NCBI GenBank assembly: GCA_905178155.1
Contig: CAJINV010000006.1
Span: 316,398 to 380,397, forward strand
Direction of reading: 5' to 3'
Source: Amoebophrya sp. A120
Taxonomy: Eukaryota > Protista > Dinoflagellata
DNA length: 64,000 nt
Shown: positions 1-63,452 of the stretch, piece after piece
Layout: every line of letters starts with the position of its first letter
How positions within the stretch are numbered: position 1 is the first letter of the stretch
Notes under the pieces: generated by a model
Told to the model about the DNA's origin: nothing
Databases searched by the model: none
The model's input: only the letters and a program-made list of their open reading frames with translations
Program-made: the position numbers and the translations under genes

Positions 1-3000
1 GCATCGCTGTCGTGCCGCCGGGAAGTAGTAGGAGATTCATCTGCAACAGATGCAGAAGCCCCCTCCTGCTGCGCGACCTCCTGCTCCAGAGGGTGGTAAT
101 ACACCGGCTTAATTTCCTGGTTGTTGCTTGCGTACACATGCCCCAGCAGCTGCCGGTGCGGTTCTGGAGGGGTTCTGACGGAGGTTTGATCTTCCTGGAT
201 TTTCTTTTGAGAGGCGTTAGGCTGCTGCTCTGGACCGCGGTGGTCCGCATCTTCGAGATGAATATTGGCCCAGAAGTTGTTCTCTGCTGCTTCATTGCGA
301 CCATCAACGCCGGTCGTAGGCCTTGTACTCTTCACGTAGTTCGTGTAGACTGTATCCACTACCTGTTCCGCATACTGCACGGCCTCAGTCAGTTGCCGCC
401 GCAAATTTTCCACTTCAAACTGGAACAGAGCCAAAGGGTTGACTCCGGCCTGACGACGGAGTGGGTGCGACGTCGACTCTTCTTTAGTTGTTGTAGTCTC
501 AGCGTGATTTTTGTTTTGCGTTCTGTTCATCACAAAGCCAAACCAGTACTCCCCTACGCTCAAATCGAAGAACCCGTTGCGACAGTGGTCCTGCACGCGC
601 CTCCCGAGAACGTATTCCGCCCGCTCCGAAAATGCGGCAAGCAAGACGCAAGAGTCGCGGAGCTCGCCGTTTCTGGTGTGTTCGAGGGGGGTAGAAGATG
701 AATCAAAGTTAAGGCTGATTTCATCTCCGACCTATCCTGTGCAAAAGCATCGTGCTCGTCGTAATCGCATTTCCTAAAGGTAAATCCGCAACATTACAAA
801 TTTCATTTTTCATGCTGAGGGATGAATTTGTCATGCGATTACTACTAGTACACTAGGCTGGAGGTGGTCCTCTTGCGCATCTTTTACTTCTCCCAGAGCA
901 CGATGTTCTTCCTGTGCAAAAGTGTCGCGCTCGTAGTAATTGCAGTCATGCATTACAAATTTTTTTTCTTAAGATTAATCCGCATTACAATTTTTTTTTC
1001 TGCTCATGCTGAGGAAATTTGTAATGCATTAATACTGTTACTACACGATGAGTACGATACTTGTGCAAGTCATAGTATGTAATCCTTCCGAACGCGCGGC
1101 TCCTCGTCTATTACGGGCGGGAAAACGCGGCAGATGGACGTTTTTCGTATTGTTTCCGCCTGGGACCACTGATTCTTCAACAGGGTAGTTGCCTCGTTCT
1201 GATGCAGAAGTAGGTGGGTATAGTGCCGCTGTTCTTGGTGGGAAATTGGAGTGGAGGTCCTCGCATTTTCAGCGGTAGGTGGACTGCTCCTGGAGGCCGC
1301 GCCTCCTCCGTCAGGGGGTTCATTTCTAGCCGTTGTTGCAGCAGCATCATCTTGATCCTGATGCCCCGGCGCGGCTGCAGCTCCGTTTATATTTTCACCC
1401 ACCCTGGCCGCCAGATGGACAAGAACCTTGTCGAACAAAAATTTGTTCTTCTTCGGAAACCTCCTATCCCGACGATAAAGAAGCCTGTCAGATTCGCTAT
1501 AGCCTTCGCCCCGTGCGAGCGAATTATCTTGCGCACTCGACAGCATGCGAGTTCTCGGTGGTCGCACGTGCGCCGGTATCATATTTGCTGTCGCTCTCGA
1601 GCGTAGTCCACCGTCCACACTATGACGCGCCTCTCCTCTTTCTCGGTCGTTAAGCTTCGAAGACAGAAAGCTGGACACCAAAACGTTCACCTTGTGTGGG
1701 AGAACGTGCCTGTAGCGCAGATTCATGTAGAGGGCAGTGGAGAAGGCAACACGGTCTGAAGAGGGCTCCTCTCGAAGATGATCCACAAGAATTTCGGGCA
1801 AGGAGGAGGTAGAGGACGCCTTGGTCGTACTAGTGCCTGGGGCAAAATTATCGTCCTCGTCCTCGTCTGTGCCACACACTGTGAACTTTGCGATTCTCGG
1901 CGATAGGCGGAGGAACGGTTTCGCGTCAAGCAATTCTTCCGGCCTGGGAGGAACGAGGCTGTTTATCTTGTAGGGGGATTTGTGGTCGTCGTCGTGGATA
2001 GTAAACTCCTTCCCGACCTGCTCCTCCTCATGCCGCTTTAGTAGAAGTAGATCGGGTCCTCGTTCTGGTACAGGCTGGTCTTCTTGCGCATCTTTTACTT
2101 CTCCCAGAGCACGATGTTCTTCTTGACCAGCAGAGTTTGTTACAGTAGAAGAAAAATGTTGAAAATACCGAACCGCATCCAAAAGCGTCGCAAAGTCTTC
2201 TGACAGGTCGAGGTAGTATAAAAATGTTCGCGGCCCCGGCTGCTCGTGGTCCTGCTGCTGCCCTTCGTGTCCGATCCGCTTCCGCTTGTTCCAGCCGACC
2301 GGATCTAGGACTTCCGCATCCAAAGTAGATCGACTGGTCTTCGTCTTGTTCGAAAGCAGCAGCTCAGCTAAGTTCCTGCTGCCCCAGATGACCGGAATAC
2401 AGTTTGCTTCCAGCAAACAGGAGAAAGTTTTGGGATGGATAAGATTGCGCGTGCCAATGTGTTCATCCGTTAAAACGAAGCTGAAGCGACAAGCAAATGG
2501 CTCTTCTTGTGCAGCATCTGCATTGATGTAGTCTGCACGGCGCCCAAGACGTTGAACTACACTGGAGGGATTCGTCTTTTCATCATTACCTGGACCACCA
2601 CCATCCGCTTCTTCTACTACTCTTGGCGGCGGAAGACCGAAGCGGTCACGGTCTGGAGAAGCGAAGTCCTCGTCGTGGTGCGCATTTATTCCCAGCGACA
2701 GTTGGGATGCACATGCGGTGGTGTGGGTGTGTTGTTCACCATCTGCAGGTCCTTCTACCAGGTTTTCCTGGAGGTTGTTCTTTGGGTCCAGGCGACGAGG
2801 ACTCAGTGATGTGACAGAAGAAGCTGCTCTCGTACTAGTAGTACAGCTACCCCCTTGCTGCAGGCGCTCCTCGGGGTTAATATTCGAGCTTGCGTTCGGC
2901 GGTGTGTTGTCTTTGTCAAAGTCACCCGCGACCTCGCCTCCCGAAGAAATATCGGAGGGCGAGGAATAACGTGATGAAGAGAATATAACCTGCTCAGGTG

Positions 3001-4512
3001 TTACAATCTCAAACGTTACAATAGAATATGGAAATCTGTGATGCAAGAGTGCATGATCTAGCCTCTTCCCACAGGATTGCGCATGACAAGTTTCGGAGCT
3101 CCAAACCGCACTATAATCTGGCGAGATTTGTATTGCAGAAAGTGGAACGCTCTGCGAGTCTGTCATGCTCATCATGCAGGACAAATCCCTGATTCTATTG
3201 TAACGCTTGAGATTGTAACGTTTGAGCAGGCCATAGAGAAACTCGGATTTTTTTCACCGCTGCTACCTGCTGAGGATGCAGTGGACGGCGTAGTTGTTTC
3301 GGGTTGTTGTAAACAAATGTTGTTCGTCGAAGCAGTGCCGCTGCTGTCTAGTTTTCGTCCGTTGGTATCTTTAATATCAACTGACAGAAGGGAAGATGCA
3401 ACTACAGGGGCACCAGCATTTTCATTGTGTCCTTTGCCTCCCCCAGGAGTAGCAGTGGTACTGCTACCCGAGAAGTGGTCTGGGCTTGCGTTCACGTTCT
3501 TCTTTTCACCGAGTTCTTGTTGTGGGACAGCAGTAGAACGGCCAGTATTAGCACCGCCACAGATGACCGGAATACAGTTTGCTTCCAGCAAACAGGAGAA
3601 AGTTTTGGGATGGATGAAATCGTCTGCCAGGTCACCAGCTGCAGCTCCTTCTACCAGGTTTTCCTGGAGGTAGTTTGGGTCCAGACCACGACTCCGGCCT
3701 CTGTCTACTTGTTTCATCTGACCCGCTAGTAGAACGATGGCCTGCTTCACCCTCTCCGCCTGCGCCCCCTCCACCACGTCAAAGTCGAGGCTGCAATAGC
3801 GTCGAGGAAGCGGAGCAGAAGTTCTCGGGGGCTCTACTCCTGCTTCAGTGGACGAGATAGTGGACCACGACGACGTGTTCTTCTGCCTAATAGAAGGCGT
3901 CTCAACATCGGCCACCTGTGCAGGAGCTGCACTGCTCGGGGCATGTTTTTCATTCTTGGCGAGCGGCCTTGTGCTTTCATCTACTCCGCCCCCATGGTGG
4001 GCATCATCGATGTCTTCTAGCCTTCCTACTTCATTCTCCTCCCCCTCTTCCAAGTCCTCAAACTCGCCAAGCTCCAAAATTCCCCGGGTCGTGATGGTCG
4101 TTTTTGGGGATTCGGAGTGCTTGAGCTCCATTTCATGATCGTCGTCCTCGCCGCTGGCTGCGGGGTCATGATGACGGTGGGTAAATACGCCAGAATTATT
4201 TTCATCCCCCTTATTTGCACCGGTAGCGTCCTCTTGAAAAATCGCATGCTCCAGTTCTACTTCTTCTTCCTTCGACGCTCGCAGGAGGTTCTGCAACTCC
4301 TGCTGCTCCCGGTCATTGACGGCGCAGAAGGAGGGAAATATGTCGTCGTCGACGACCACATGGTCACGCGGATGGGTCGATTGTTTTTGCAGCGTGCTCC
4401 TGTGATGAAGATCGCTTTTTAATACTTCCGGTTCTGCGGGAATTGTTTGTGACGTGCAGCAGAAGAGGACGACAGAGCGGAAGAACGGGAATTTTCTTGC
4501 GAAAATGGCCAT
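1..4512 (-). CDS. Hypothetical mosaic protein with degenerate glycosyltransferase family 10 (alpha-1,3-fucosyltransferase)-like motif; runs off left edge
   Basis: ORFs 3172-4572 and 1070-3184 join in frame (KNPSFS|SSRYSSP) when element 2984-3235 plus one GAGAA is removed. First ATG at 4512 gives MAIFARKFPFFRSVVLFCC. CRFSFVLTDEHIGTRNLIHPKTFSCLLEANCIPVIWGSRN resembles the GT10 YKFxLAFEN..YVTEK..NAL.AG.VPIV.G motif by eye. Junctions at 733-1074 unresolved. Confidence 0.55.
733..850. mobile_element. Introner family B, right end truncated
   Basis: Left TIR TATCCTGTGCAAAAGCATCG with GCATTACA/TGTCATGC motifs; no intact right TIR. Confidence 0.6.
908..1074. mobile_element. Introner family B, degenerate left end
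   Basis: CCTGTGCAAAAGTGTCG...ACGATACTTGTGCAAGTCATA; no clean DR. Confidence 0.65.
2984..3235. mobile_element. Introner family H
   Basis: TATAACCTGCTC...GAGCAGGCCATA; DR GAGAA; removal restores frame; absent from paralogous segment near 21530. Confidence 0.9.
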
Positions 4513-4759
4513 GAGGTCTTGGGGTTGACGCCCTCGAGCTGGACGACGTAAGTAGTACACGTGCTGGCTCACGCTTGTTTATAATGTTGAGGCTGCTCCT
4601 CTCACTCTCTGTTCTTTGTGATAGGCGCAACGCTGGTGACTACTCCTGTGCGTAGCACTGTAAGCAGGTAGTTCCAGCGAGATACAGTCCTACTGAGATG
4701 TGGTGGCGCTTCCGAAATGATAGTGCCCATACACGAAGAGCAAGTGGAGAGCGAAGCGG

Positions 4760-7674: not shown

Positions 7675-7863
7675 ATGCAAAAACAGAAGGAATTGATGCA
7701 AAAACAGAAGGAATCGATGCTAAGACAGAAGGAATTGATGCAAAAACAGAAGGAATCGATGCTAAGACAGAAGGAATTGATGCTAAAACAGAAGGATTTG
7801 ATGCTAAAGCAAAAGGATTTGATGCTAAAGCAGAAGGATGTGAAGCAAAAACAGAAGGACTTG
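7675..7863 (+). repeat. 21-bp tandem repeat (ATGCAAAAACAGAAGGAATTG), about 9 copies
   Basis: Visible period 21; translates as MQKQKEL/MLRQKEL heptads in ORF 7603-8142. Confidence 0.9.
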
Positions 7864-8164
7864 CGCCAGGAGCTGCTCGCTCTGGTATCAATCCAGCGGA
7901 CTTTTCTCCTTTGCAAGGAGAAAAGTCCGGACTTTTCTCCTTTGATCCATATCAAAGGAGAAAAGTCGTCTGATCCATATCAAAGGAGAAAAGTCCGACA
8001 TCGCGGACCCTCTGATCCATATCAAAGGAGAAACCCCGATACTTATCACGGACCCTATCCCACCCAAACCTTAGCCACCGAGCTCGTCTCCGCTCTGTTT
8101 CGCAGTGAAGATCAGAAGGAGCTTGCCTCCACTACGTGTTGACGCGGAGATCAGCGGCCGGCTC

Positions 8165-8500
8165 CTAAGGAAGAGATTTCCTATAAAGAAACGCGGAAAG
8201 CCCAGGGGCGAGCGATTTCCTAAAAGAAATCATGCGGAAAACCCGGACGAAGCGATTTCCCAAAGGAAATCATGCGGAAAGCCCAGGAGAAGGGATGTCC
8301 CAAAGAAAATCACGCGGAAAGCCCAGGAGAAGGGATTTCCCAAAAGAAATCACGTGGAAAGCCCAGGAAAGGGGATTGCCCAAAGGAAATCATGTGGAAA
8401 GCCCAGGAGAAGGGATTTCGCAAAGGAAGTCATGCGAAAAACCCAGGAGAAGGGAATTCCCAAAGGGAATCACGCGGAAAGCCCAGAAGAAGGGATGTCC
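8165..8500. repeat. 40-bp tandem minisatellite, about 8 copies
   Basis: Unit approx. CAAAGGAAATCATGCGGAAAGCCCAGGAGAAGGGATTTCC, head-to-tail without spacers. Confidence 0.9.
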
Positions 8501-8845
8501 CCTTCTGAAGGAAATCTCGAGAAGCCCCGACTGCCTAAGTAAGATGTTTGGAAAAGGGGGCTTCTTATAGAGAAAACGAGGGGCGAATGCGTTCAGGGCA
8601 CAAAAAAACGGTCTCCGGGAACAGGACCACTGCTACGGGGCCTCTCCCTACGCTACACTCACCGACCCCCCGCTACATTCGGAGGCAAAAATCGACCTCA
8701 AGACCCGCACCTTTCATGGGCAAGACGCGCCCAGGGTAGCCAGAATGCCCTATGCTAAACACTGCGCGACGGGAAAAACGCCCAGCGCCCTGCCCGAAGC
8801 CATTCTCTGCGCGAGGCCAATCAAAAACGCCTCCGCGGCAAGCCT

Positions 8846-8961
8846 GGGACTTATGGCAGCGGGTGAGCTGTTCCCAGGGTAGCCAGAGTGCACTTAGTGC
8901 ACTCTGAGAGTGCACTTAGTGCACTCTGCTGCCATAAGTCTCACCCGCTGCCATAAGTCCC
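8846..8961. repeat. 22-bp perfect inverted repeat enclosing two tandem palindromes
   Basis: GGGACTTATGGCAGCGGGTGAG (8846-8867) / CTCACCCGCTGCCATAAGTCCC (8940-8961); AGAGTGCACT-T-AGTGCACTCT at 8885-8905 and 8907-8927. Confidence 0.9.
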
Positions 8962-10618: not shown

Positions 10619-10718
10619 GGACTTTTTTCCTTTGGCTGGACTTTTTTCCTTTGGCTGGACTTTTCTCCTTGGCAGGACTTTTCTCCTTAGCAGCTTTGAC
10701 TTTTCTCCTTGCGTGATA
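10619..10718. repeat. 18-19 bp tandem repeat GGACTTTT(T/C)TCCTT(T)GGCT, about 5 copies
   Basis: Same core as the GACTTTTCTCCTTTG / AAGGAGAAAAGTC hairpins at 7570-8035. Confidence 0.8.
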
Positions 10719-11322
10719 ATTTATTTTTTTTTTCTGGACCCAGCTCCAGGAGAAGTAGTAGCATTTAAGAAAAAAACATACGCCACATCAAGAAGGCGGC
10801 GGTTTATGAAATCAGTAATTTTCCTACATGCTGTTTATTCCAGTGATTTTTTTTTGTTTTTAAAAAAGTCTAATGAATTTCAATACATAGGTACGTACAG
10901 GCATGATCAGTGCAGAAACAAATAAAAGAATTTCATCACCACAATCAAGATCCACTGAATCACCACAGGGACCGATGTAGATGAGTTCGAGATCATTAGC
11001 ATTGGTCCACGTCGTTCTTGCCTCCCCTAATCTCGTAGTTTTCGCCCCTCCTTCCGGCGTGAAAGCAAAACGTAGTTGGCCCGTCAAAGATTGTTTTTTT
11101 TCCTCTTTACAAGTGTGAAAGCAAAACGAGAATATATCGCCAAGAAACTTAGGTCGAAAATAAAACTTGTATCAAGGGCGGGCAAATTGATATATAGTAG
11201 TTTTTTGTTCGCTGAAGTACCAAATATGTTGAGGAGTTTCTTGATCTAGAGATTCTTCATTCGGTTTTGTTAATGTACAACAATGAAAAGAAAAATCTCA
11301 ATTTCCGGTACTATCTTCACGT

Positions 11323-14300
11323 TCACCCCTCCGTCCAGTCCTCCGAAACTACACAAGATGAACTCTGGCAGGATTCGGGCGTCAAAACATCTGAAAAGGC
11401 TTCCATTTATCAAATGCAAAAATGTCTGGGTCCGGAAGATTCTGAGATTTGTCCTGCATGTTTTGCATGACCCAGGATGTCTGTAATGCACGCCCTAGCA
11501 TCACAGATTTTTAGAGGGCTTCCTGATGCCTCTTCCGCATGACAAACGCCCTCCCCGCGTAGCACACACTAGACTCCCCTTGCTTGTCATGCAATACAGA
11601 TTTTTTTAGAGTCCAAAGTTAGCATCACAAGTTCCAATCTTCCAGACCCAGACATTTTTGCATTTCATACCATTTCCGCGTTCAATGCCTCCTCTTCCCG
11701 CATTTCCTCGTCAATCAATCGGTCCTCCTCGTCCGGGGCAAGAAAAGTTTCGGCTAAATTGCGACCGGACGTGCCCGGAGGGACAAAAATCACAGTGGTG
11801 GAAGAAGTGGTCGCAGTAGTGGTGATGGTGTTTTCACCGTTCTCTTGATTACTATTTTCGAATTGGTCGGTCTTGTCAACATTCTTGTTGTCGTTATTTT
11901 TCGGAGGCTCTTCTTGGTCCTGCTCCTGAACACGCTGCATGGTGTGCTTTTGGAAAATGTCAATCGATTTTCGGATATGAATCGCAAAAGCATCGCACCC
12001 TAGGTAGTACAAATCGCATGACAAATTTTTCAGCATGAAAATATGAAATTTGTAATGCGGACCTAGCTTGAGATAGAGATTTGTAATGCGTGAGTGCGAT
12101 GAAAATTTTGCAGTGCATATCGGATCCGTTTGGCCGATGGGCCGCGGGTTTCTTGTTCCTCTTCCTGCTGTAGTTTTTCCTGGTTAAAAATATTCTTTGT
12201 TAATACGCAGTGGCTCCTTTCGCGGTCGATTTCGTGGTCAACGCTTGTGCGATTCCGCAGCGAAGAAATAATAACGGGTCGTGATGCTGCTGTCGGAGCG
12301 GCAACAATTTCCGCTGCCGGTTGGACCACGTCCAGGGCGGCGGAAGAGGTACTAGTCAAGGATGTACTGCTAGTCGTGCTGGTCAGAGACAGGGTGCTAC
12401 TAACTTGTTGTGTTTGTGGTTGTAGTTCAGTATCGGAAGTAGAAACGACTTCCTGCTGGACAACTTCTGGTAAAGGGCTAAGAGTTGCATTGCTGGATGT
12501 TGCTCCGGTTGTAGTTGTATTCGTGGAGCAAGTAGATGTAGAACAAATCGAACTTTCGGATTCATTTTCTGCTGCAGAGATGGAAACAGTTGCAGTGGAA
12601 GACAAAGTGCTAGTTGTATTGGCCGCCGATAAAGACGATGATGCAGCCGCTGAACTACTTGGTGAAGGTAATGCAGCCGCTGTAGACGATGAAGGTAATG
12701 CTAATGCAGCCGCGGCTGGTACTGAAGATGACGTTGACATCAACGACGTCGATCTGGAAGAAGAACTGGCAGAAGTAGCGGTCGCCCGGTTCCGCTTGTT
12801 GGCGGGAAAATTGGAAGTTAAAATCAAGTTGTTACACGGGACAGAGATGGTCAAATTATCAGAGGTATGCATTGCAAAAGTATCGTAGTAGTATAAATTG
12901 CAATACAAATTTCCTTAGCATGAGAAATGGAATTTATCATGCGGATTTGCCATAGCAAAAAGATTTGTAATGCAAAACTTGCATTCATACGAGTACGATA
13001 CTTTTGCACAGGATAAGAGGTAGTACTCGATGTAGAAGTTGATGAGCTGATGTTGATATTACAACTGCTGGTGTTAGTTGTAGTAGTACCGGTCGTCGAA
13101 GTTGTACTACTAGAAGAAGATGAAACAGGTCCTTGCGGAACAGATCCAGATCCCGACGAGTTTGTTAAAAGCGAAGAGTTGATGTCATTATTTCTCAATT
13201 CTTGAATCGTCTGCACGGTGTCCGCATTACACATTTTTTTCCCCGTATGAAAGTGCACAAAATAACCCTCCTGCCCCCGTTCATTTGTCATTTGAGGTGC
13301 ACAGCTGTTTGTAGCTGCTGTTGGATTTTTGCCTTCTAATGCTACAACCACCCCAGGCGCCTTGCGTCACGAGCTCCTATAGCGCACCGAGCACAACCAC
13401 ACACATTAGTTGTACGAGAGCCAGTTTGTCGAGGCCGTGTGGTTCTTTATGCATTAAATAAAACCGGGGTAACAAGACGATAGTGCGCAGGATCAATCCC
13501 ATAGGCAGTCTGACACAACACCCAGTGACTGTATGCCGACATTGCCTCTTCCTGAGAGACGTTGCGCCTATGACGTTGCACAACCCGCCTCCCTCTAGTG
13601 TCTCGCTAGTCAGTTTGTCCCGTGCCACAATTGTAAGTGCAGTTAAACTTTATTTCGCATGAAGATCTAGTTCAGAAGTTGCAAAAATGCAACTGAAAAA
13701 GATCATGAAACGGGAGGAGTTTTTGTGCACTCTCATAGCGGCCGCGTGCCACTATTACAATGAAAAATGCCCCACCCCCAGCTTGGCAGCATTTGTATTG
13801 CAAACCTTTCCAACAGAAACATGCCCCGTCTTGCATATCTCAGCATCACAGATTTTCCATGCTGAATAGGTCAAATTTGTGTTGCGAAGTAGCCCAACAG
13901 CAGGCGGATCAGTTATGCACAAGGCACCGCGCGCACCCAGATTCTGCATCAGAAACGCTCGCAATCCTTTTATGCAAGACAAAAAGCTTTCATTTGGAAA
14001 CTTTGCATGACAAACTTCTGCAAATTCCGGGGGGGCATTTTTCACTGTAATAGCCACCTCGATTATTTTCCTTTCGCGGCGGAACGGGAGCGGCGTCGGT
14101 GGCCGTGCGTACGCAGATGCGTCACCCATACCCGTTCCTACCGGCAAGGTTATCCAAGAAAAAAACATTGTAGGTGTAACTTTCTTGGAGGATTAGCATG
14201 ACAAATATCTCTCGCATGAAAGCAAAAACCTGTCATGCGCAGATAGTACGGGAAAACGCCGTTGAATGGGCCCTACGATGCATGCCAAGCATGACAGACG

Positions 14301-33409: not shown

Positions 33410-33735
33410 TATCAAAAGGAAAAATCCCCCTTCCCCATATCGAAAGGGTATGTTTCCGAAAATTTGTGTTGCTGATTTGAGGTCACAAATCGCATTTGTC
33501 TTGCAAGAAGACAAGGGCAGAAGCTTCCGCCCCATTATGGAAGCGATTTGTCATGCTGTTCTTGGGCCTAAAGGTGAGCCGTTTGCCGTGCTGCACAGCT
33601 AGACCCATACGCCCCTACCTAGCCTGGGGGTCTGGCCGCCGTGCCTTTCTGCAATACCAATCTGATTTGTGTACGCAAATTCAGCATCACAGATTTCCTT
33701 TTTGATATGGGGAGGGGGGATTTTTCCTTTCGATA
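33410..33735. mobile_element. Introner family C downstream of CFAP57 stop (probable 3' UTR)
   Basis: DR TCTTC; absent from paralogous flank near 52475. Confidence 0.9.
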
Positions 33736-33890
33736 TCTTCCGGAGGGAAGCGGAAGTGGAGCACAAACTCTGAAAAAAAGTCAGTACAAAGATGTTGATG
33801 TGTTTCTTTTGTTAGCCCGATTGTTAATACACTGTATTGTAATTTCATAACATTTTACTTGTTAGTTGCCTGTGCCTCCTCCGACCGCTA

Positions 33891-51800: not shown

Positions 51801-51943
51801 ACATTCCGGATACACAAGTACCTCCCCACGGGGAAAATGATGTGCGCCGAGTCCAGAAACTTCACGTGCTCCTGGGACAGCAGCGCCTGGGAGTGGGACT
51901 GGGAGCCCCAGGCGTGGATGATGGAAAAGTTGTTCGACGCCAT
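33891..51943 (-). CDS. CFAP57: Cilia- and flagella-associated protein 57 (WDR65)-like; WD40 repeats plus C-terminal coiled coil; about 44 introners plus several GT-AG introns
   Basis: Reconstructed peptides match my recollection of CFAP57 in order: FLDSAHIIFPVGRYLCI, VEAITSFAVSLDKTFIVSCE, HFGPVLSVS..TCAG..LRLYNYETLELE, IQCAIHPDGYSCAVAFADGTLRMFHLL, KHTSPIADVSFDFQALTMATVGIDGSFYVWD, LFATTTSGTLWSYPFPL, MLIEEINALRRSQK. Ends GFPLMISMQNK-TAA at 33891. A few canonical-intron boundaries (~37200, ~40600-40700, ~42800-43170) unresolved. Confidence 0.88.
33969..34246. mobile_element. Introner family A
   Basis: DR TTCGC; removal gives frame to the stop. Confidence 0.9.
34319..34463. mobile_element. Introner family B
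   Basis: DR TCCCA. Confidence 0.9.
34541..34798. mobile_element. Introner family A
   Basis: DR TGGCT. Confidence 0.9.
34863..35032 (-). other. Canonical GT-AG intron
   Basis: AAG|GTACTT...TATCAG|ATA gives YADK|IKQMEMELK. Confidence 0.8.
35091..35240. mobile_element. Introner family B
   Basis: DR GCATG. Confidence 0.9.
35365..35644. mobile_element. Introner family F (left end GAT)
   Basis: DR TCCTC. Confidence 0.85.
35724..35885. mobile_element. Introner family B
   Basis: DR TTTCT. Confidence 0.9.
36085..36415. mobile_element. Introner family A with internal insertion
   Basis: DR CCCGT; extra segment starting with (AGATC)n at ~36163-36250. Confidence 0.85.
36494..36748. mobile_element. 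Introner family A
   Basis: DR GTGCT. Confidence 0.9.
36857..37076. mobile_element. Introner family E
   Basis: DR AACTC. Confidence 0.9.
37516..38766 (-). other. Long GT-AG intron with triplicated acceptor, octamer arrays and truncated A element (38255)
   Basis: AG|GTATAG...CATCAAG|G gives MEKERQR|FALLQKEHEE. Confidence 0.7.
38065..38205. repeat. About 22-bp tandem repeat ATGATCTGTCATGCAAATTTAA
   Basis: 5-6 copies built on the introner octamer TGTCATGC. Confidence 0.85.
38852..39185. mobile_element. Introner family F
   Basis: DR GGACT; frame restored. Confidence 0.85.
39286..39495. mobile_element. Introner family E
   Basis: DR GCTCT. Confidence 0.9.
39546..39815. mobile_element. Introner family D
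   Basis: DR CCTGG/CCTTG (4/5). Confidence 0.85.
39882..40154. mobile_element. Introner family A
   Basis: DR TTGCT. Confidence 0.9.
40219..40446. mobile_element. Introner family D
   Basis: TATGAGAGTGCACA...TGTGCACTTTCATA; DR 3/5. Confidence 0.85.
40778..41047. mobile_element. Introner family A
   Basis: DR ACTCG; empty site at 52999-53003. Confidence 0.92.
41096..41355. mobile_element. Introner family H
   Basis: DR CTCTG; empty site at 53275-53279. Confidence 0.92.
41485..41772. mobile_element. Introner family F
   Basis: DR TCGGC; same insertion site in paralogue at 53665. Confidence 0.9.
41821..41976. mobile_element. Introner family B (left end TCT)
   Basis: DR AGTTT/GGTTT (4/5). Confidence 0.85.
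42040..42326. mobile_element. Introner family F
   Basis: TIR clear; DR GCTTG/TCTTT (3/5). Confidence 0.8.
42447..42733. mobile_element. Introner family F
   Basis: DR CCAAG/CTAAG (4/5). Confidence 0.85.
43275..43423. mobile_element. Introner family B
   Basis: DR TGTCG/TTTCG (4/5); frame restored. Confidence 0.9.
43455..43719. mobile_element. Introner family A
   Basis: DR CCAAA; frame restored. Confidence 0.9.
43929..44085 (-). other. Hybrid intron: canonical GTAAGT...TAG around a decayed B-type introner (43938-44080)
   Basis: Removal gives REHQAP|LYDLYLTP and skips an in-frame TAA. Confidence 0.75.
44178..44440. mobile_element. Introner family A
   Basis: DR CACCG/CATCG (4/5); frame restored. 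Confidence 0.9.
44499..44645. mobile_element. Introner family B
   Basis: DR ATTTT; frame restored. Confidence 0.9.
44703..44852. mobile_element. Introner family B
   Basis: DR TCTTC; frame restored. Confidence 0.9.
44873..45159. mobile_element. Introner family A
   Basis: DR CAATT; frame restored. Confidence 0.9.
45333..45489 (-). other. Canonical GT-AG intron containing introner octamers
   Basis: CTG|GTATAA...TTTTCCAG|GTT gives NLNKL|VTIKKHTSP. Confidence 0.85.
45638..45847. mobile_element. Introner family E-like
   Basis: DR GCAAG. Confidence 0.85.
45959..46292. mobile_element. Introner family C
   Basis: DR GCTCA. Confidence 0.9.
46339..46575. mobile_element. Introner family A
   Basis: DR AAGAG. 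Confidence 0.9.
46616..46846. mobile_element. Introner family D
   Basis: DR AACAG. Confidence 0.9.
46915..47171. mobile_element. Introner family H
   Basis: DR AGGGA. Confidence 0.9.
47262..47435. mobile_element. Introner family B (diverged)
   Basis: DR AGGCT/AGGCC (4/5). Confidence 0.8.
47492..47726. mobile_element. Introner family D
   Basis: DR ACTGC. Confidence 0.9.
47850..48120. mobile_element. Introner family A
   Basis: DR CTTCC. Confidence 0.9.
48181..48489. mobile_element. Introner family C
   Basis: DR TCCCA. Confidence 0.9.
48735..49058. mobile_element. Introner family C
   Basis: DR GAATT/GAGTT (4/5); opposite orientation to 48181 copy. Confidence 0.88.
49119..49370. mobile_element. 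Introner family A
   Basis: DR AGGCG. Confidence 0.9.
49393..49656. mobile_element. Introner family H
   Basis: DR ATCGG. Confidence 0.88.
49762..49940 (-). other. Canonical GT-AG intron made of tandem octamer-containing repeats
   Basis: AA|GTACTA...CATCACAG|G gives YLKLYK|YNTTSRDL; internal repeats TTTTGTCATGCAGAAACCAGAAAAA. Confidence 0.8.
50008..50306. mobile_element. Introner family A (diverged, left end CAT)
   Basis: DR GAACG. Confidence 0.8.
50383..50604. mobile_element. Introner family E
   Basis: DR TCAAC; very similar to 39286-39495. Confidence 0.9.
50688..50916. mobile_element. Introner family D
   Basis: DR GCGCT. Confidence 0.9.
51177..51488. mobile_element. Introner family G
   Basis: DR CCGTG; frame restored; reverse orientation of 13753 copy. 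Confidence 0.9.
51523..51785. mobile_element. Introner family A
   Basis: DR TCCGT; frame restored. Confidence 0.9.
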
Positions 51944-51960
51944 TGTCGTTAGTAGAAGCG

Positions 51961-52069
51961 TACTCAGTGCAAATGTGTCTGGGTCTGGAAGATTTTTATT
52001 TTTTGGAATCCAAGACGAGTAGCATCACAAGTTCCATCTTTCAACACCCAGACACTTTTGCATTTGATA
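51961..52069. mobile_element. Short (109 bp) family A derivative just upstream of the CFAP57 ATG
   Basis: TACTCAGTGCAAATGTGTCTGGG...TTTGCATTTGATA; DR AAGCG/AAGCA. Confidence 0.8.
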
Positions 52070-53024
52070 AAGCAAGTAGTGGTGACGAGATTTCTTCTAC
52101 CCCGTGGTATTCAGCGTCGTCGAACAACAGATTCCTTCGCGGAGAGTGGTGAAGCTTTTCACTGTGTGAATGTAGTCGTTTTTGAGGCAGTAGTCGGCGA
52201 CGAGCTGTCTTCACGCATCGTTTTGACTTGCTCTATAACATTCTTTCCCGCGCACTGACTCTACTCACGACAGCCGCACAGCTACCCATTTTTTCACGAC
52301 TGCTGTTCCCGTATAGTTCTATAAAGAAGTTTTCATTTTGGTGAACAAGTCGAGATAGGAAAAATAACGAAATTCTGGTTGTAAACAAATTACGAAATTC
52401 TGGTTGTAACAAAGGTGCGTGAATAAAATGTATTTTTCCAGCAGTGCGATACAAGTTATTTTGAGTTCGTTCCTTTTTCCGGGGGGAAGCGAAAGTGGAG
52501 CAGAAACTCTGAAAAAAAGTCAGTACAATGAAGTTGTGTTTCTTTTATTAGCCATAGCCCGCTTGTTAATACACTTACTATCATTTCATAACATTTTGCT
52601 TGTTAAGTAGCTGCCTCCTCCGACCGCTATTATTTGTTTTGCATGCTGATCATGAGCGTTTTGTCAATGACGAATGAGGAGAAGGGGGGGTTGTGGACCA
52701 CTCTGATACCTTGTCCGCATTTTCGGTTCTCAAGTCCTTCTCGGTGCTGCGCCTCTAACGCTTTCACCATGCGGACGGGTTCCTGGAGAAGTTTTATTTC
52801 GTGTATTTTTTTTGTTGCGAATGCGATTTCACGCAACATGCATTGTCATTGTCATGCGCAACATCAATCTTTAACTTCATCTTTAACGTTCCCCAGAAAC
52901 AGCACCGTTGCCACCATATTCTATACCTGTTCCCTTTCCTGAATGATATCCTCCAATAGCACTATCCTTTCCTTCAATGCTTCCACTTCTGACTTCTCAC
53001 TCGTTATCTTCGTCGACTCTAGTC

Positions 53025-53252
53025 TATCCAAAGAAAAAGATTGTAGCTGTGACTTTCATCTTGCTGGAACAGCATGACAAATCCGTCTGGCATGGGACGA
53101 GCAACGACCTGTTATGCGCAGATAGTACGCGAAAAGGAAAACGCCACTGGCATTGAATGGGCGCTACTATGCATGCCCAGCATGACAGACGCACTCATCT
53201 TGCAGGTTGCGCATCACAAAGTTACAGGCTAACAATGTTTTTTTCTTCGATA
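53025..53252. mobile_element. Introner family J
   Basis: DR TAGTC; empty site (TAATC) at 41069. Confidence 0.92.
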
Positions 53253-53292
53253 TAGTCTCGCCTCGTACGCGTACCTCTGCTGGTCTAGTTTC

Positions 53293-53548
53293 TCTCAAAT
53301 GCAAAAGTGTCTGGGTCTAGAAACTTGTAATGCTCGGTTGGGCATAGTGAATGCTCTGTAATGCAGAGCCAAGCATGAGAAATATCTGCGCTGCTTAGTG
53401 TTGCGCTGTTCGCATGACAAAATGCGTGTTTGCAACGTGATAGGCAAAAGGCTCTCTTCTTGGTCACGCATCACAAACTCTTCAGTCATGCCAGACAAGC
53501 ATGACAAACCTTGTATTCTTCCAGACCCAGACATATTTGCAATCCATA
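53293..53548. mobile_element. Introner family A (left end TCT)
   Basis: DR GTTTC; empty site (GCTTC) at 41369. Confidence 0.9.
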
Positions 53549-53664
53549 GTTTCTGCATGCTGTCCAACTCGATTTGCTTAATCTCGTGGTTCAACTTCTC
53601 GACCTTATCTTCCAGTTTTACCAAGTCCTGTTTCTCAATCAAGCAAATCTCGTCCCCCTTCGGC

Positions 53665-53785
53665 TATCCTTTGCGAAAGCGTCCCCATCCCATAGTCAAG
53701 CTGCTGGTAAATCCGCAACACAAATCTCCAAGCTTTGGGGTGGGGACGTTTTGACTATGGGGTGGGGACGTTTTTACATATGATA
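53665..53785. mobile_element. Chimeric family F element
   Basis: Left flank TCGGC equals the 41480 site, right flank GCGTC equals the 45507 site. Confidence 0.8.
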
Positions 53786-53825
53786 GCGTCTCCAGGACGG
53801 TTAAGAACTTCCCATAAATCACCAC

Positions 53826-54094
53826 TATCAAATGCAAGTGTGTCTGGGTCTGGAACAAGGTTGGAACCTGTCATGCAGCCTTCACCTGACCCGTGACGTC
53901 TGTGATGTATTCCCTAGCATCACAGAAGATTTTCTGAGTGCTTCTTGATGCCTATAATTCTGCATGACAAATAACCTCCCCGCGTAGGACAAACTGCACT
54001 CCTCTTGCTGGTCATGCAATACACATTTTTTTAGAATCCAAAGTTAGCATCACAAGTTCCAACTTTCCAGACACAGACATGTTTGCACTTGATA
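53826..54094. mobile_element. Introner family A
   Basis: DR ACCAC; empty site at 45542. Confidence 0.92.
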
Positions 54095-54161
54095 ACCACC
54101 AAATAGCTCCCATTGGTCGGACTGTACACCACTTTTTTCAAATTTGCAAACCGGAGTTCTG

Positions 54162-57085: not shown

Positions 57086-60000
57086 TTAAAAGCAATCTGC
57101 CAAATTCCGCGTTCCCGGTCTCAAACTCCCAAACCGATTCGCCACGAGCAGCAATTTCCGATGCGCCTCAGAGTTCGAAACGCTTCCCAAATAGCTCGGG
57201 TAGACCGCGCGGTTGCTTACCAAGAGGTTTTTGTACTCGTACGTCTTAGCGGTGGGCAGGATTTTGTTGTCCTCTATGCATTGCAAATACCGATTCTGAT
57301 CTGGGTCTGGATTTGCAATGCAAAATTTATTAAATGAAGAAAGCAAGACTAAGGTCTAGTACTTCTGTGGTGCATGAATATGAAAAATACGTAGTAGTTG
57401 GTGGACCCAGTTTTTTTGTCGTGCCGGAAGCTTGTTTGTCATGCACTGATTTCCAGAAGACCGAGATCGATAATTTGCATTTCTATTCGTATCCTCCATC
57501 AAAACCCTGTTCCTCGTCTCGTGCAGTTTGTTAAGCGGCGAGTTTCCGTGCTGTATCCTCTGATTTGCGAATAGCCACTCCTTCCTCTCGTTTTGTTGGT
57601 TTATTTTCTGGCGGAAAAGAAGAGCAGATGATGCGGGGGGAGCAGTAGTAGTTTCCTGCTCGTCGTTCTGCGTCCTTGTCCTAATACCGTTTCTTATCCC
57701 ACCAGCGATGAAGTAGTAGCCTTGTGCTCGTCTACTTGTAATACTTCCACCTCCTCCTTTAGAAGTACCACTACCGCAGTTCATTGCGTTGTCGTAGATT
57801 TGGCCTATTTTGTGGTCGAATTCCGCCCTATCCACCTTAAATTCCGTCAAATTCCTCCCGGTTTCGTTGTGGAGCAATTGGTTCACTTTTTTCTCGTAAT
57901 CTTCTGTCCGTTCAACCGAAAGTAGTAGATTCTTGAGGAACGACGGAACAACTTCTGCGCCGGAGTCTATCAAAGTGAAAAATCCCCCCTCCCCATATTG
58001 AAACGAAAACTTCTGTTGCTGGATTTGTGGACACAAATCAGCTTTGTCTTGCAGTATAGGACTGCAGGCAGATGCAAAGCCTAGACGGGCCTGGCTAGAG
58101 GTGGGCGCTCAGCATGGCAGACGTCTACCCTGTTGGTGCAGCAGCATTACAAATCGCCTGCGTAAAGCGGCGAAAGCTCTGGCTTTGCTCTTTTGCAGGA
58201 CAGACCTCATTTGTGACTACAAATCAGCATCACAAATTTTCAAAAGGATGCCTTTTCGATATGGGGAGGGGGGATTTTTCCCTTTGATACCGTCGTCGTT
58301 GTACTTAACGGCAGAGGAACCTGCAGCAACTCCTGTGCCGTTCAGGCCCCCGGCTCGTAGTGAGTAGCTGTCGGGAAGGGAGTGGTATGACGGAGCGGTA
58401 GCTGTACTAGTAGCGGACCTCCTGGAAATAACATTATTACTGTTCTTCCCCGCACGACTTCCTGCTCCTTTCTCTACGTAGCTCGATACACTGGTGGAAA
58501 CGAGAGGCGGCGTCAGCTTCGTTTTCAACAAACTCTCCTCGTATGTCGCGGACTCCAGCCCAATTTTTCTTGCGGTGGGTCTGTCGAATTCCGCTGTGGA
58601 ACGGTAGGATTTCTTTCCATGGTAGACTTGCAGGCCCGCAGCGGCCCGCGCGAAATGCATCGGGGACACATCCTGAGTAGATTTTTGGATTTGTTTTTGA
58701 GATATTTTTTGTCAAGGAAAAGGAAATCAAAAAGTTGGGGATTCTGATTATTTTTGCGCGGAAAACAAAGAGAATGCTGATCGCAAAAATTATCGGTGGG
58801 ATCCTGGTGCCCGCCATGAGGAACGGCTTGGCATCTCAATTTTGAGTGCGACAGAACTTCCAAGAGGGTGGAGCAAATAAAGTTATACTACGAACTAATC
58901 TGGAACTACTGGACCTACTTCATCTTCTTGAATGCTGGTCCATTGCCGTAGTTATCGAGACTTCCAAGTGGCACGGGGATGAATTCGATAATTGGTCTAA
59001 AAATCAGAATGTTCTAGTGGCGTTTATTGGCAATGGCAACGCACGGCTAGTTGTACACAACTACGCGTTCCAACAATGAATCTGTTATGCAGAGTTCGCA
59101 AGTATTATGCTTATCTGGATAGAGTTATAATTTGTAATTCTCTAAGAGCAAAACCAAAAGCAAACATGAAATTGAAATCCTCTAGTATAGGTTTTTTACC
59201 CGCATCACGCGGTTCCCGACATCTCCTGCCGAACGCGCTCGCGGTGCCGAAAACGACGCGACGGAGGGTGAGTAGCAGTCAATGTGCGGCGAGGCTAGAT
59301 CTAAGTCGGTATCAAATGCAAACATGTCTGGGTCTGGAAGGCTGCAACTTGTGATGCTAAATCTGAAGCATGCAAAAAGTCTGTGTTGCATGATTACCAA
59401 AAGCTGTCCACTTTCGACCAAGTTGGGAGGGAGAGTTTCTCATGCGTGATACACATGACGGAGGCCTCTTCACAGAGTTTGTCATGCTAGGTCCCACATT
59501 TTTCCGCACCTCATGGGTCATGGAAAACATGCATGACAAGTTTCTACTCTTCCAGACCCAGACATATTTGCACTGAATAGTCGGTGAAACCAGACAAAAA
59601 CTTTCGCCTGCCGCCCACAAAAAACCGATCCAGCTGGTAGTCTTTAGAAACCGGCGGGTTGAGGCTTTCACCTATCCTGTGCAAAAACATCGTACTCGTA
59701 TTGCAATCATGCATTACAAATCTTTTTCTTGAGGCAAATCAGCATTACAAATTTTCTTTCTCATGCTGAGAAAATTTGTCATGTGAATCGGTTCGAGAGT
59801 GTACCCCAGTTCACGAACTAGCTCGTGAAGGTTCCGGGCATACGAAAAAGGACAGAACCATACGTAGTGCACCTGCCAAACCCCGAAAAAAAGAGCGGGC
59901 AACGGGAGAAAATAATCCCGATGAGCTGCAGAGCATATCTTGCGGGCACCATATGTCGCAAAAAGTATGCGCACGCAACAAGCCCCGAAGGGTCTTGTAT

Positions 60001-63000
60001 TTTGGCGCGCGCGCGCGCGCGATTTTGGTTTGTGAGGCGCGAAGCGCTGCGCGACTATTGTTTACGGTGGGACGGCTGACGGTCGTAGGATTTAGGGGCG
60101 CTGCTTCCGATCAATGGGCGCACGAAGACCGAAGCTGTGCGCGCGGCGCTGGTTTCAAACAGAAAGCGGGCGAACGCAAGGGCCGATCGCAGTCATGGCT
60201 ACTGTTTTCTGTAATGACAGACTTGAGGCCTTTGGCGCCCATCACGGTGCGCGCAGCTGTGCTGCAGCACCATCTAAAACGACGACGCTGCGGCATTGCA
60301 GGTACAGAGCCGAACCGGGGGCCAGGTAATACCTGGCCCCCCGGATCGACTAAGTACCACTGAGATCAGGAGCGTACCTTTGGGTCAGGAACGCCCCCCC
60401 TACTCCTTCCTCCACCTGCATATTTTTTTGGCGCCGAGCATATCAAATGGCCTGTTTGTTCTAGGATATTTAGGCCCCGGGGCGGTATTGAACTGGTAGG
60501 TACATTGTTGAACCGCGGGCCCTGTTGAACTGATACACATGCATTTATACGAGTACTATCAAATGTAAAAATGTCTGGGTCTGGAAGAGTGCTAGACTTG
60601 TCATGCAGATTTTACATGACATATGACGTCTGTAATGCATCGCCTGGCATCACAGATTTTTAGCAAGCTTTCTGATGCCTATCCCGCATGAGAAATACCC
60701 TCTCCATGTAGCACAAACTGGACCCTTCTTGCTGGTCGTGCAATACAGATTTTTTTAGAATGCAGAGACAGCATGACAAGTTGCATTCTTCCAGACCCAG
60801 ACATTTTTACATTTGATAAGTACGATACTTTTGCAATGCATAACAAAAAACCGATCCAGCTGGTAGTCTTTAGAAACCGGCGGGTTGATATGAGAGTGCG
60901 CAACTCCCCCTCCCCCTCATTTAATTGGCACGCACAGCAACACAAGTGCTGACACAGATGCACGCTTTGCATTACAAATTCGCGATCGGTTCTAGTGCTG
61001 TTTCGGCTTCGGGAATCTGTCATGCAAGGAGCGCCACAGGGCAAAGGTTGGACTTGGCATTTTGCATGACAAATGAGGGGGAGGGGGAGTTGTGCACTCC
61101 CATAGTTGAGGCTTTCACCTTTCCGCGCCTTGGACTGGTAATGCGGATGAAGGTCGAGGTCAAGGCCGTCGAGGACTCCTGCTATGTTTCTTTCTTTATC
61201 TGGAACTGCTATATCGGAATACGCGAATCTCTGATTGCCGTCCACTTTTCGCACGTCGAGGCCGTGGCGTTTGGATGATGAGAAAGATGATCCTACTATC
61301 CTGTCAAACGTCCGCCCGCCCGCCTCGAACAAGCTCGCCGGGGAAAACTGGTAGCCGGTACCCGGCCCGCTTCGGTAAGTTGCCGCCTTGTGGTAATTAT
61401 GCATTGCAAATATGTCTGGGTCCGGAAGGATACAACCTGTGATGCTGTCTTTGGATTCTAAAAAAGTTTGTCTTGCATGATCAGGAAGACGGTTCCAGTT
61501 TTTGCTACGCGGAGATGGAATTTCTCATGCGGGATAGGCATCAAAAAGGCCACAGATTAAATCTGTGATGCTAGAGCATAGATCACAGGTGTCATGGATT
61601 TATACAAAATGTGCATGACAAACTCAGGCTCTTCCAGACCCAGACATATTTGCAGTTGATAGTAATATCCTCCACTGGTTGAAGGGGATTTGGGTAGAGT
61701 ACCCGTCTTGGCCGGAGTCCACTTGTGAGTGCCGTGGGAAAGCGGCTTGAAACCCGGGCGAAAGACAGTGGAGGAGCTGATTTTGGATTTCGGGTTTACT
61801 TATCATGCGAGGGTTTACTAGGGTTGAGGGTTTAATATGCGAGGCCAATTTCAAAAATTTTCAGACAAAGAGAGAATCGTTCAACAGTGCCACGAAGGTC
61901 GCTTCTTTGCAATAGATATGTTCCTTACCCGTGGCTCGCGTGTCCTCGTTTCGCAACCTCTTCCCGGTGCTGCGCGATTTCCCCCATGATACTTTCTGCG
62001 TAGTGCTTCTCAATCGGCGACTTATATTCTGCCAACTCCTGCGTGCTGTTTACCCTTTTCAAAAACCGCAGGTCCGCGTCGTTCCTACTGCATTTCTCGA
62101 AAAAATCGTCGTACTGCTTCACCAGATATGCGGTTTTGAAATGTGCGGCGTACATTTTGCCACTCACCGGGAACTCGGTCGGCTTTTTTCGGATGAAGTG
62201 CATAATCTTCTGGTCTAAAAACACGTCCGGGTCGGAAGGGAGTTGTAACAGGTCTTGTTCGGTATCGGTGCGGAAATTTCTAGTACCTTTGGACAACATC
62301 ATGTTGGAACTACTCCTCTTTCTCGTCGGAAGGAGCAAATGCGGGATTCTCCTTGCTGGGTCAAATTCGTAGTTCCGGGAAAAGTTGTCGTATTTTGCGT
62401 TGCCCGAGGACGCGGCGCGGCTCGTCCGGGTGGCGGGTGAAATTGATCCACCCGCTCGGTCGTCTAATATTAACGGGAAGACTCTGCCCCGTGCGAGGGT
62501 CAAGTTTCGACTTTGGGTACTACTAACAGGTGCTTTTTTCCTCGTGGAGCCTGTGTGACTGCTCTTCCTATCGTCAATTGCACGACCACGAGTTGTTGTA
62601 CTACTACCTGGAAGCTATGGAAGTGTCAGGATTGAAATCGACAAAGTTGAAATAATCTGTCATGCATAAAATGCAAGGCACGAAGCGAGTGTCTTGCAGA
62701 GATTGCAAATGAGGCGGATTGTGAGCCTATTTCGGGTTTGGGATAGAGCTGCGAACGTAGCATGACAAAGGACGCCTTCTTTCGCTAACCAGCATGACAA
62801 ACTGGATTTAGACGGTATCGAAATTTGTCATGCGCGGCCTAGAAATTGGGCTTCCAACTGGTATCCATTTCATGCATCACAAATCGTTTCAACTTTGTTG
62901 ATTTCAAACCTGACGCTTCCATAGAAGCTGCTGCCCGGGTAGTTCTTCAGTTAATATTCCGGAGGTGAGCGCAACCTCTTCGACCAGCTGCGCCGTCTGC

Positions 63001-63452
63001 GCCATCCGTTCCGCGACCGTGAGAGCAGGTCGTGGCGGCCTCGTCGTCCCGAAAGGAGCTCCTGCTCCGAGCGCGGAAGAACTAGAGGACGTTGGTTCTG
63101 TAGTTTTTTGTCCTGGTGCTCTTGCGTCGGAGTGGTGGTTATGAACTGCAAATATGTAGTCTGGGTCTGGAAGATTCTTACATTTGTCCTGCATGTCTGA
63201 CATGACTCGAGAATCTGTGATGCATAGAGGCATCGGAAAAGCCTCGCCTATCTGTCATGGAAAAACGAAGTTTCTCATGCGGAATACGCAACACATAGCA
63301 GCTCAAAAATTTGTCATGCTGGGCTGCGTATTGCAGTCCGGCTATCATCCACTTCTCGCATCACAAGTTTCCAAACCCAGACATTTTTGCAGTTGATAGT
63401 GGTCGTAGGGGCTCCGCTCGAGCACTTGCTGGATGAAGGGAGAGGTGTCCAT
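57086..63452 (-). CDS. Hypothetical protein with 9 introners and probable GT-AG introns
   Basis: Starts MDTSPFIQQVLERSPYDH|HSDARA (junction 63140); GESLN|PPVSK (60889); SGFTD|LDLAS (59310); VLME|DNKIL (57275) to stop at 57086. Some internal junctions not traced. Confidence 0.65.
57275..57491. mobile_element. Introner family A, strongly diverged
   Basis: DR TCCTC; frame restored. Confidence 0.75.
57968..58289. mobile_element. Introner family C
   Basis: Clear TIR; DR GAGTC/CCGTC (3/5). Confidence 0.85.
59310..59579. mobile_element. Introner family A
   Basis: DR GTCGG; frame restored. Confidence 0.9.
59784..60537. mobile_element. 754-bp TG...CA element with 4-bp TSD (solo LTR or Ginger/TDD-like non-autonomous element)
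   Basis: Ends TGAATCGGTTC / GAACTGATACA (9/11 inverted match); CATG duplicated at 59780-59783 and 60538-60541. Confidence 0.75.
60557..60818. mobile_element. Introner family A nested in right TIR of a B element
   Basis: DR AGTAC. Confidence 0.92.
60889..61104. mobile_element. Introner family D
   Basis: DR GTTGA; empty site in duplicate at 59658-59662. Confidence 0.92.
61398..61661. mobile_element. Introner family A
   Basis: DR GTAAT. Confidence 0.9.
62616..62923. mobile_element. Introner family L (single copy here)
   Basis: About 37-bp TIR TATGGAAGTGTCAGGATTGAAATCGACAAAGTTGAAA; DR GAAGC. Confidence 0.9.
63140..63398. mobile_element. Introner family A
   Basis: DR GTGGT; frame restored. 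Confidence 0.9.

Follow-up and report, generated by a model that had tools for sequence, protein, structure and literature searches.

Introners of the dinoflagellate Amoebophrya sp. A120 have been described as RNA-supported introns with non-canonical ends, present in 29,850 copies that belong to 1,954 families and measure about 240 nt (Farhat et al. 2021, PMC7789003). Their inverted repeat consists of TAT, seven variable nucleotides and at least three A residues, and is accompanied by direct repeats of 3-5 nt, given as 5 bp in the legend of Fig. S19. The elements are said there to lack an internal transposase, none having been found in A120, and the introner border is called "unknown" and, in the legend of Fig. 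3, "variable". The 21 of 58 A120 rows available from one dataset of Gozashti et al. (2025) class the families mostly as terminal inverted repeat (TIR) DNA elements of unknown superfamily, with mixed splice-site calls; other Amoebophrya strains use canonical splice sites (PMC12005148). Here, a window of 64,000 nucleotides of the A120 genome was analysed (assembly GCA_905178155.1, contig CAJINV010000006.1, positions 316,398 to 380,397 of the forward strand; coordinates below count from the first letter of the window). A large gene with similarity to CFAP57 and several neighbouring loci in this window are interrupted by dozens of TAT...ATA elements. Two exons match, each at 100 %, proteins recorded under the name Amoebophrya sp. 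A120, one of 1,534 aa and the other of 425 aa, and all features tested (location in A120 genes, TAT-7nt-AAA ends, a 3-5-nt repeat, repeated RNA-supported non-canonical introns) are found here. These matches and the published description identify the window elements as the published introners, a system that is thus already known. A reading of the same DNA made from its letters alone, referred to below as the sequence-only reading, had pointed to the introners described in Amoebophrya; it is to those introners that its inserts belong. What is new is a handle, obtained from one window, on the position at which these elements are cut.

A strict scan for TAT...ATA pairs of 50-700 bp with an exact 5-bp flanking repeat and an inverted match of at least 11/20 gave 56 elements, against 0-2 per local shuffle (20 shuffles), so that the architecture proposed by the sequence-only reading is real. 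Scanning with a library of ends followed by hand curation raised the number to 82 paired elements plus some 11 unpaired ends, which agrees with its estimate of 85-90 inserts. Among 81 TAT/ATA pairs with an inverted match of at least 14/20, the direct repeat is 5 bp in 48, 4 bp in one and 6-9 bp in none. Both TAT and ATA are present in 73 of the 81 elements counted, and their 5-bp repeats are perfect in 61, with one mismatch in 13, two in 5 and three in 2; in the eighty-second element (13246-13737) the repeat agrees at one position of five. Element length has a median of 259 bp and ranges from 109 to 492 bp. TAT stands at the sense 5' end of 80 of the 82 elements, and A occupies positions 11-13 in 66-73 of the 82 at each end. 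When the interiors are clustered, an identity cut-off of 65 % leaves 16 singletons beside ten multi-copy clusters, and one of 60 % leaves ten beside six, so that the earlier figure of at least 11 TIR families is reasonable but not sharp, the tally moving with the cut-off. Two inserts of that reading did not hold up: at 733-1074 only decayed debris is present, with no repeat that matches, and 59673/60842, taken as one pair, are two half-elements. The latter false pair is still counted, and 13246-13737 is omitted, in the whole-window clustering and in the 7-mer tallies given below.

That the elements are transposon-derived and made their 5-bp target duplication on insertion is shown by seven empty paralogous sites in two pairs of duplicated regions. 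Each empty site holds a single copy of the 5-mer, which makes the 5-bp repeat a target-site duplication (TSD). The elements are short and non-coding, with TIRs and a TSD of fixed length formed on insertion, as in miniature inverted-repeat transposable elements (MITEs). None of 20 open reading frames (ORFs) or proteins of the window that were scanned had a Pfam match, to a transposase or to any other family, and Rfam gave 0 matches. Copies of the two largest families are found in either orientation; in one family (40219-60889), all five copies have the same orientation. A set of related 7-mers (CATGACA with its variants, on either strand) is concentrated in the elements, e.g., with 132 occurrences inside and 27 outside, the elements covering about one third of the window. 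These 7-mers are possible sub-terminal binding sites or internal stems.

The CFAP57-like gene occupies 33893-51943 on the minus strand, with its start codon at 51943 and its stop codon at 33893. It has 52 exons and encodes 1,534 aa. Its coding region contains 44 elements, the number given by the sequence-only reading, together with seven GT-AG introns; one further element in each untranslated region (UTR) brings the transcription unit to 46. The protein consists of WD40 repeats followed by a coiled coil. Eight PDB matches were obtained, two of which are named CFAP57 (E 3.5e-16 and 4.5e-15) and cover the WD40 stretch only; single exons gave no PDB match and only sub-threshold WD40 or coiled-coil hits in Pfam. 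The spliced frame is identical to the annotated 1,534-aa protein P0001. Keeping one element truncates the frame in 43 of 44 cases, and removing the element length L plus 4 or 6 nt instead of 5 does so in all 44.

Removal of the elements as element plus 5 nt at the RNA level is shown by public RNA aligned to 33000-52900 (15 of 88 joints listed, 12 of elements and 3 canonical) and to 41380-44700 (12 joints). Run X8 is recorded as RNA; contigs of X1 and X2, which come from one sample, and of X4 were used for the register of the cut, and runs X9 and X10 scarcely cover the gene (158 reads and 1 read). Two of the 12 joints (41577-41689 and 43326-44615, at depths of 6 and 10 in one run each) were left out; they join element interiors and likely stem from other copies. 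Exactly element plus 5 nt is skipped at all 21 element joints listed, 12 of them seen in hundreds of raw X8 reads and nine in contigs, as the sequence-only reading had claimed from frame restoration. The same records contain four spliced GT-AG introns, which place the gene on the minus strand. The length of a 3,103-nt RNA contig comes out exactly when 25 elements, each at L+5, are removed together with two GT-AG introns; the first three elements leave no free parameter, and the two intron lengths were solved for and then found in the sequence. This sum adds 20 elements, so that removal is backed by RNA for 41 of the 46 elements of the transcription unit, plus two loose ends. The X8 cover stops at 41443, where the letters are presumably those of a library adaptor, and X8 may derive from few molecules. 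No full-length circle joint was seen among the joints listed (15 of 88, and 12), in libraries of complementary DNA (cDNA) of messenger RNA (mRNA). In any of the six possible registers, GT..AG occurs in just one of the 46 elements and GA..AG in two more, in keeping with the earlier statement that most junctions lack GT-AG sites.

The element in the 3' UTR (33410-33735) is removed as element plus 5 nt, with 735 raw X8 reads at its joint (33404) at a neighbouring depth of 843. It is followed by 15 elements with perfect repeats: 33969-34246, 34319-34463, 34541-34798, 35091-35240, 35365-35644 (left end GAT), 35724-35885, 36085-36415, 36494-36748, 36857-37076, 38852-39185, 39286-39495, 39882-40154, 40778-41047, 41096-41355 and 41485-41772. 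Joints of 11 of these are among those listed; 36857 is a loose end, and 34319, 35365 and 39286 have no joint among those listed. In the WD40 half of the gene lie 43455-43719, 44499-44645, 44703-44852, 44873-45159, 45638-45847, 45959-46292, 46339-46575, 46616-46846, 46915-47171, 47262-47435, 47492-47726, 47850-48120, 48181-48489, 48735-49058, 49119-49370, 49393-49656, 50008-50306, 50383-50604, 50688-50916, 51177-51488, 51523-51785 and, in the 5' UTR, 51961-52069. Their removal is based on two listed joints and on the length sum over one RNA contig, and the shortest exons between them measure 15 and 17 nt. The seven canonical introns, all on the minus strand, are 34863-35032, 37136-37319, 37516-38766, 40562-40700, 42792-43137, 45333-45489 and 49762-49940. 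Four were placed by an RNA joint, two by the length sum and one by the frame; their donors read GTAC (twice), GTAT (four times) and GTAA (once).

As a perfect repeat leaves six possible cut positions, copies with a mutated repeat are needed to place the cut. The register is expressed as k, the number of bases ahead of the sense TAT that leave with the intron. In the CFAP57-like gene, the informative copies are 39546-39815 (repeat mismatch, k 0-3), 40219-40446 (two repeat mismatches, k 0-2, from a loose end and not a listed joint), 41821-41976 (sense 3' end AGA, k at least 1), 42040-42326 (k 1-4), 42447-42733 (k 0-1, the joint sharing only 1 nt), 43275-43423 (k at most 1), 43938-44113 (k 0-1) and 44178-44440 (k 0-2). 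The only register shared by the seven listed mismatched-repeat joints and the loose end is k=1. Of the 46 elements, 39546-39815 alone reads GT..AG, in the k=1 register. At another locus and in another family, the annotated protein P0002 fits k=1 alone at element 57968-58289, and one register suits the informative copies, which come from five families. Among the products of the different k, P0001 is the one given by k=1 and by no other; it was probably built from similar RNA and so does not count as independent support. The cut is therefore likely to leave 1 nt ahead of the first TAT and 4 nt beyond the last ATA within the intron, giving an intron of the form N+TAY...ATA+NNNN. Its terminal bases are free, with all four letters at the first and last position: the first base is C in 23, A in 21, G in 19 and T in 18 of 81 elements, and the last two bases take 15 forms, AG among them in 10 of 81. 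The duplication is not required for removal. The old element 43938-44113, whose repeat agrees at two of five positions and whose sense 5' end reads TAC, is still excised exactly as element plus 5 nt in RNA, and excision of 13246-13737 (repeat 1/5) restores a frame, which is frame evidence only.

Several points limit the case for a single register. The lower bound (k at least 1) comes from two joints and the upper bound (k at most 1) from three; the contigs behind the register joints were assembled from two samples of a single study, and combining the joints presupposes one register. All genes of the window are on one strand, and a rule following element orientation is conceivable; copies 42040 and 42447, of one family and in opposite orientation, would also fit a flip of the 1/4 cut. 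In a separate comparison, on a link between repeat decay and G at +1, this base stands in 8 of 21 copies with a decayed repeat and in 11 of 61 others (p 0.08, not significant).

A putative relaxed U2-type spliceosome, with the terminal hairpin as its guide, probably removes the elements. They would have been spread by cut-and-paste in a MITE-like manner, by a DNA transposase encoded elsewhere. The hairpin would join the element ends and stand in for site finding by U1 and AG, the TAY of the element at intron positions +2 to +4 would be read as the host G-TAY donor by the ACAGA box of U6, and the 3' cut would be set by its distance from the stem, whatever the sequence. Both ends carrying the same motif, splicing would work in either orientation, and 1+4 being 5, the message would be unchanged and insertions into exons tolerated. 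Among the canonical donors of the window, eight of eight begin with GTA and six of eight with GTAY, and TAY stands at +2 to +4 in all 82 elements at k=1; judged by its letters, the element donor looks like the host G-TAY donor minus its G. At the sense 5' ends T and A are kept in 82 of 82, the only change being TAT to TAC (twice), and the matching two bases at the sense 3' ends are altered in 5 of 82 (two-sided p 0.06). The nine commonest non-canonical site types of A120 all have T at +2 (Table S4), the nine A25 types all begin with TT and A25 repeats begin with TTA (Farhat et al. 2021, PMC7789003), which together would place T and A at +2 and +3 in both strains. U1 snRNA (small nuclear RNA) and snRNP27 are reported as undetected in Amoebophrya, while U2, U4, U5, U6, U2AF, SF1 and U1-70K were detected (PMC7789003); in yeasts, loss of SNRNP27K accompanies a preference for U at +4 (PMC10581693). 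The 15- and 17-nt exons and the end-to-end folding of 45 of 46 elements, expected from inverted repeats, fit definition of the intron by its hairpin. G is enriched at repeat position 4, at k=1 the last base of both exon and intron (33 of 82 against 27 %, p 0.009 uncorrected), with no mirror image at position 2. The elements do not follow the U2-type pattern of a GT or GC donor with an AG acceptor; the likeness to the host donor at +2 to +4 is there. The k=1 register thus points to a relaxed standard spliceosome more than to a separate machine.

Against this reading stands the chemistry: G at +1 and the terminal AG are catalytically important in known spliceosomes, and here G is at +1 in just 19 of 81 elements and AG ends 10 of 81. 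The donor TAY is paired in the stem in 33 of 46 folds and must open to pair with U6. No invariant A was found near the 3' end, where ATA varies to ATG, ATC, AGA and GTA. The G enrichment does not stay significant once 20 cells are corrected for, and codon third positions are a confounder (13 of 19 phase-0 sites). Conservation of TAT may serve the transposase alone; the 5'/3' asymmetry is not significant at p 0.06. Dependence on a spliceosome, with a lariat and a branch point, is a prediction. In its strongest form, the reading proposes a spliceosome that needs no set base at either intron end, with the intron defined by the hairpin, no sequence signal other than UAY at +2 to +4, and a 3' cut measured off at 4 nt beyond the stem; we put this slightly below an even chance. 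If it is true, any transposon that ends in TAT and duplicates 5 bp enters exons freely, in either orientation and in all families. The idea of a branch adenosine fixed at -7 or -5 was also rejected, neither position being invariant.

The same elements and the same register could be handled without a spliceosome: an endonuclease or ribonucleoprotein would read the terminal stem and cleave 1 nt ahead of it and 4 nt beyond it, and ligation would follow, as is suspected for euglenids. The freedom of both terminal bases, the lack of an evident branch motif and the end-to-end folds (45 of 46, again as expected of inverted repeats) would suit such an activity, as would the failure to find U1 (PMC7789003) and the release of euglenid TIR introns as circles without lariats (PMC11282704). 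We nevertheless think it unlikely, though it has to be reckoned with: TAY falls exactly at the position of the canonical host donor, the sole GT..AG copy reads so in the k=1 register, the sense 5' ends vary only from TAT to TAC, and no such enzyme is reported for Amoebophrya in the literature found. A cut that slides within the repeat by copy or family, k=1 being merely the commonest outcome, would agree with the sites termed variable by Farhat et al. (2021, Fig. 3 legend, PMC7789003), with the mixed co-opt/carry calls and repeat lengths of 2-5 in the 21 of 58 A120 family rows of Gozashti et al. (2025), and with four of the eight RNA-informative copies, which permit three or four registers. 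Aligners slide within a perfect repeat, however, so that apparent variability is to be expected; moreover, k=1 is excluded by no informative copy and is the only register permitted by 57968, k=4 is excluded by six copies, and every one of the eight excludes at least one register. Real removal with a sliding cut therefore appears quite improbable.

The two remaining explanations do without removal of the elements from RNA. A hairpin between short direct repeats is the classic setting for template switching by reverse transcriptase, and all RNA data used are cDNA, so that the joints could be artefacts and the mRNA could keep its elements. Retention, on the other hand, cuts the protein short for 43 of 44 elements in the CFAP57-like gene and in 22 of 22 in a second large gene (see below), removal is exact where the joint shares only 1 nt (42447 and 43938), and the 735 reads at joint 33404 compare with a nearby depth of 843. 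Removal that continues after decay of the duplication argues against such an artefact, which we hold to be very improbable. Excision from DNA before transcription, like that of the internal eliminated sequences of ciliates, would be consistent with the resemblance of the ends to transposase sites and with the fact that contig runs X1, X2 and X4 are only presumed to be RNA. The GT-AG introns are likewise missing from these contigs and from X8, the run recorded as RNA, the assembly retains all elements, and the 1/4 cut is asymmetric though the end motif is symmetric; this explanation is the hardest of all to credit. Broken frames on retention and removal that survives loss of the repeat together make both explanations unlikely. 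A relaxed spliceosome working by one rule remains our preferred reading. One shared machinery, as proposed by the sequence-only reading, agrees with the single register of five families, but its "non-standard" nature is unproven; the register favours a relaxed spliceosome. The companion idea of nearly neutral insertion into exons fits 44 insertions in an intact frame and is not supported as framed; introners are fewer in translation genes (Farhat et al. 2021, PMC7789003).

Some further observations were made on the CFAP57-like transcript. The 1,251-nt GT-AG intron 37516-38766 is full of element debris and has an acceptor-like stretch present three times; contigs of X1 and X4 extend into the intron, and X8 depth is zero at 37648-38311. 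In the X1/X2 contigs, depth is about 260 over the coiled-coil (3') half against 30 over the WD40 half, contig depth being a poor measure, and an X2 contig passes from spliced downstream exons into the canonical intron 42792-43137, up to 42975. The depth step and this read-in possibly reflect an internal start that gives a short isoform. At 33370, one extra A in a run in the 3' UTR is present in 797 of 843 X8 reads, representing an assembly slip or an allele.

Elements are also found at other loci of the window. A large minus-strand gene (11200-24096) carries 22 outer elements and one GT-AG intron (14929-15050), and has 2,328 codons after their removal, on frame evidence only. Two ORFs of this gene that were scanned had no Pfam match, and a search for an annotated protein found none. 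Removal of its 492-bp element (13246-13737) plus 5 nt extends the frame from 1,901 to 2,328 codons. In the nested pair 19927-20359, a second element with a perfect repeat (19936-20106) sits within the first, 9 nt into its sense 3' inverted repeat, and removal may proceed in two steps, as in a twintron. Element 24781-25087, with two repeat mismatches, belongs to a 519-codon frame on the minus strand (26045-24177). Element 2984-3235 is located in the minus-strand frame 4578-1073; a paralog near 21530 is empty at this site, and the region of the 2984-3235 copy is in turn empty for element 21320-21512. Just upstream of the CFAP57-like gene, a decayed, rearranged partial duplicate of it (52477-54161, minus strand, in pieces of 75-98 % identity) carries a different set of elements (53025-53252, 53293-53548, 53665-53785 and 53826-54094), with empty sites in both directions between gene and duplicate. 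The last elements of the window are 59310-59579, 60557-60818, 60889-61104, 61398-61661, 62616-62923 and 63140-63398, accompanied by the half-elements at 59673 and 60842. Read by eye, the start of P0002 (about 59700) seems to lie inside half-element 59673, and its N-terminus may be mis-annotated. Positions 26440-31593 hold a tandem duplicate pair, each of a GC-rich upstream region plus a decayed gene (72-92 % pieces), with no Pfam match in the ORFs scanned. In GC-rich intergenic DNA at 7675-8501 and 8852-8955 there are short tandem arrays, together with a small inverted repeat of the TAT...ATA type that lacks a target duplication.

A single register names the bond to be sought in a lariat or circle, at intron base +1, one before TAT. 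It also predicts which mutations matter, namely those in TAY and the stem and not those in the duplication, and it gives a rule for correcting tens of thousands of gene borders. If the process is spliceosomal, it would be a natural example of splicing in which the terminal bases are free at either end, and would bear on how far GU/AG chemistry can be relaxed and on the bulk conversion of transposons into introns.

Compared with the account of Farhat et al. (2021, PMC7789003), the commonest A120 repeat geometry is described otherwise there, while here 5 bp directly flank TAT and ATA; the border is left open there, whereas here one register fits and removal outlasts decay of the repeat. No report of a fixed 1/4 register or of independence from the duplication was found in the literature covered, which did not extend to subscription journals, theses and Figs. 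S19-S25 of the 2021 paper, any of which may show it. The introners of Micromonas, Aureococcus, Symbiodinium and Polarella likewise originate from DNA transposons whose insertion is neutralised by splicing, with splice sites supplied by the element or the TSD (PMC9860276). They use or recruit GY/GA-AG sites (PMC9860276), and introners recruiting GY-AG sites were also described by Gozashti et al. (2022), whereas G[TCA]..AG in any register is found in only 3 of 46 elements here. The TA..TA termini with inverted repeats of IS3EU/GingerRoot transposons resemble those of the A120 elements, but their TSD is usually 6 bp (PMC10045372), while it is 5 bp here, with a 6-bp repeat in 0 of 81 pairs; the resemblance is a lead to the missing autonomous element and not a sign of membership. 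Nonconventional introns of euglenids are similar in having a terminal stem that joins the ends, TSD-like repeats and variable borders. They differ in the position of the stem (+4..+6/-8..-6), in their Y|R junctions and in their circular excised RNA (PMC11282704); the A120 stem runs from +2 to -5, and the first intron base takes all four letters. The non-canonical introns of Fritillaria borealis prefer AG-AC or AG-AT ends and occur with a conserved U1, while terminal bases are free and U1 snRNA is undetected in the present case. They resemble the A120 elements in being MITE-derived, with TIRs and a TSD, and mostly non-GT-AG, and are removed by an adapted U2 spliceosome (Henriet et al. 2019, as cited in PMC11282704 and PMC13326754).

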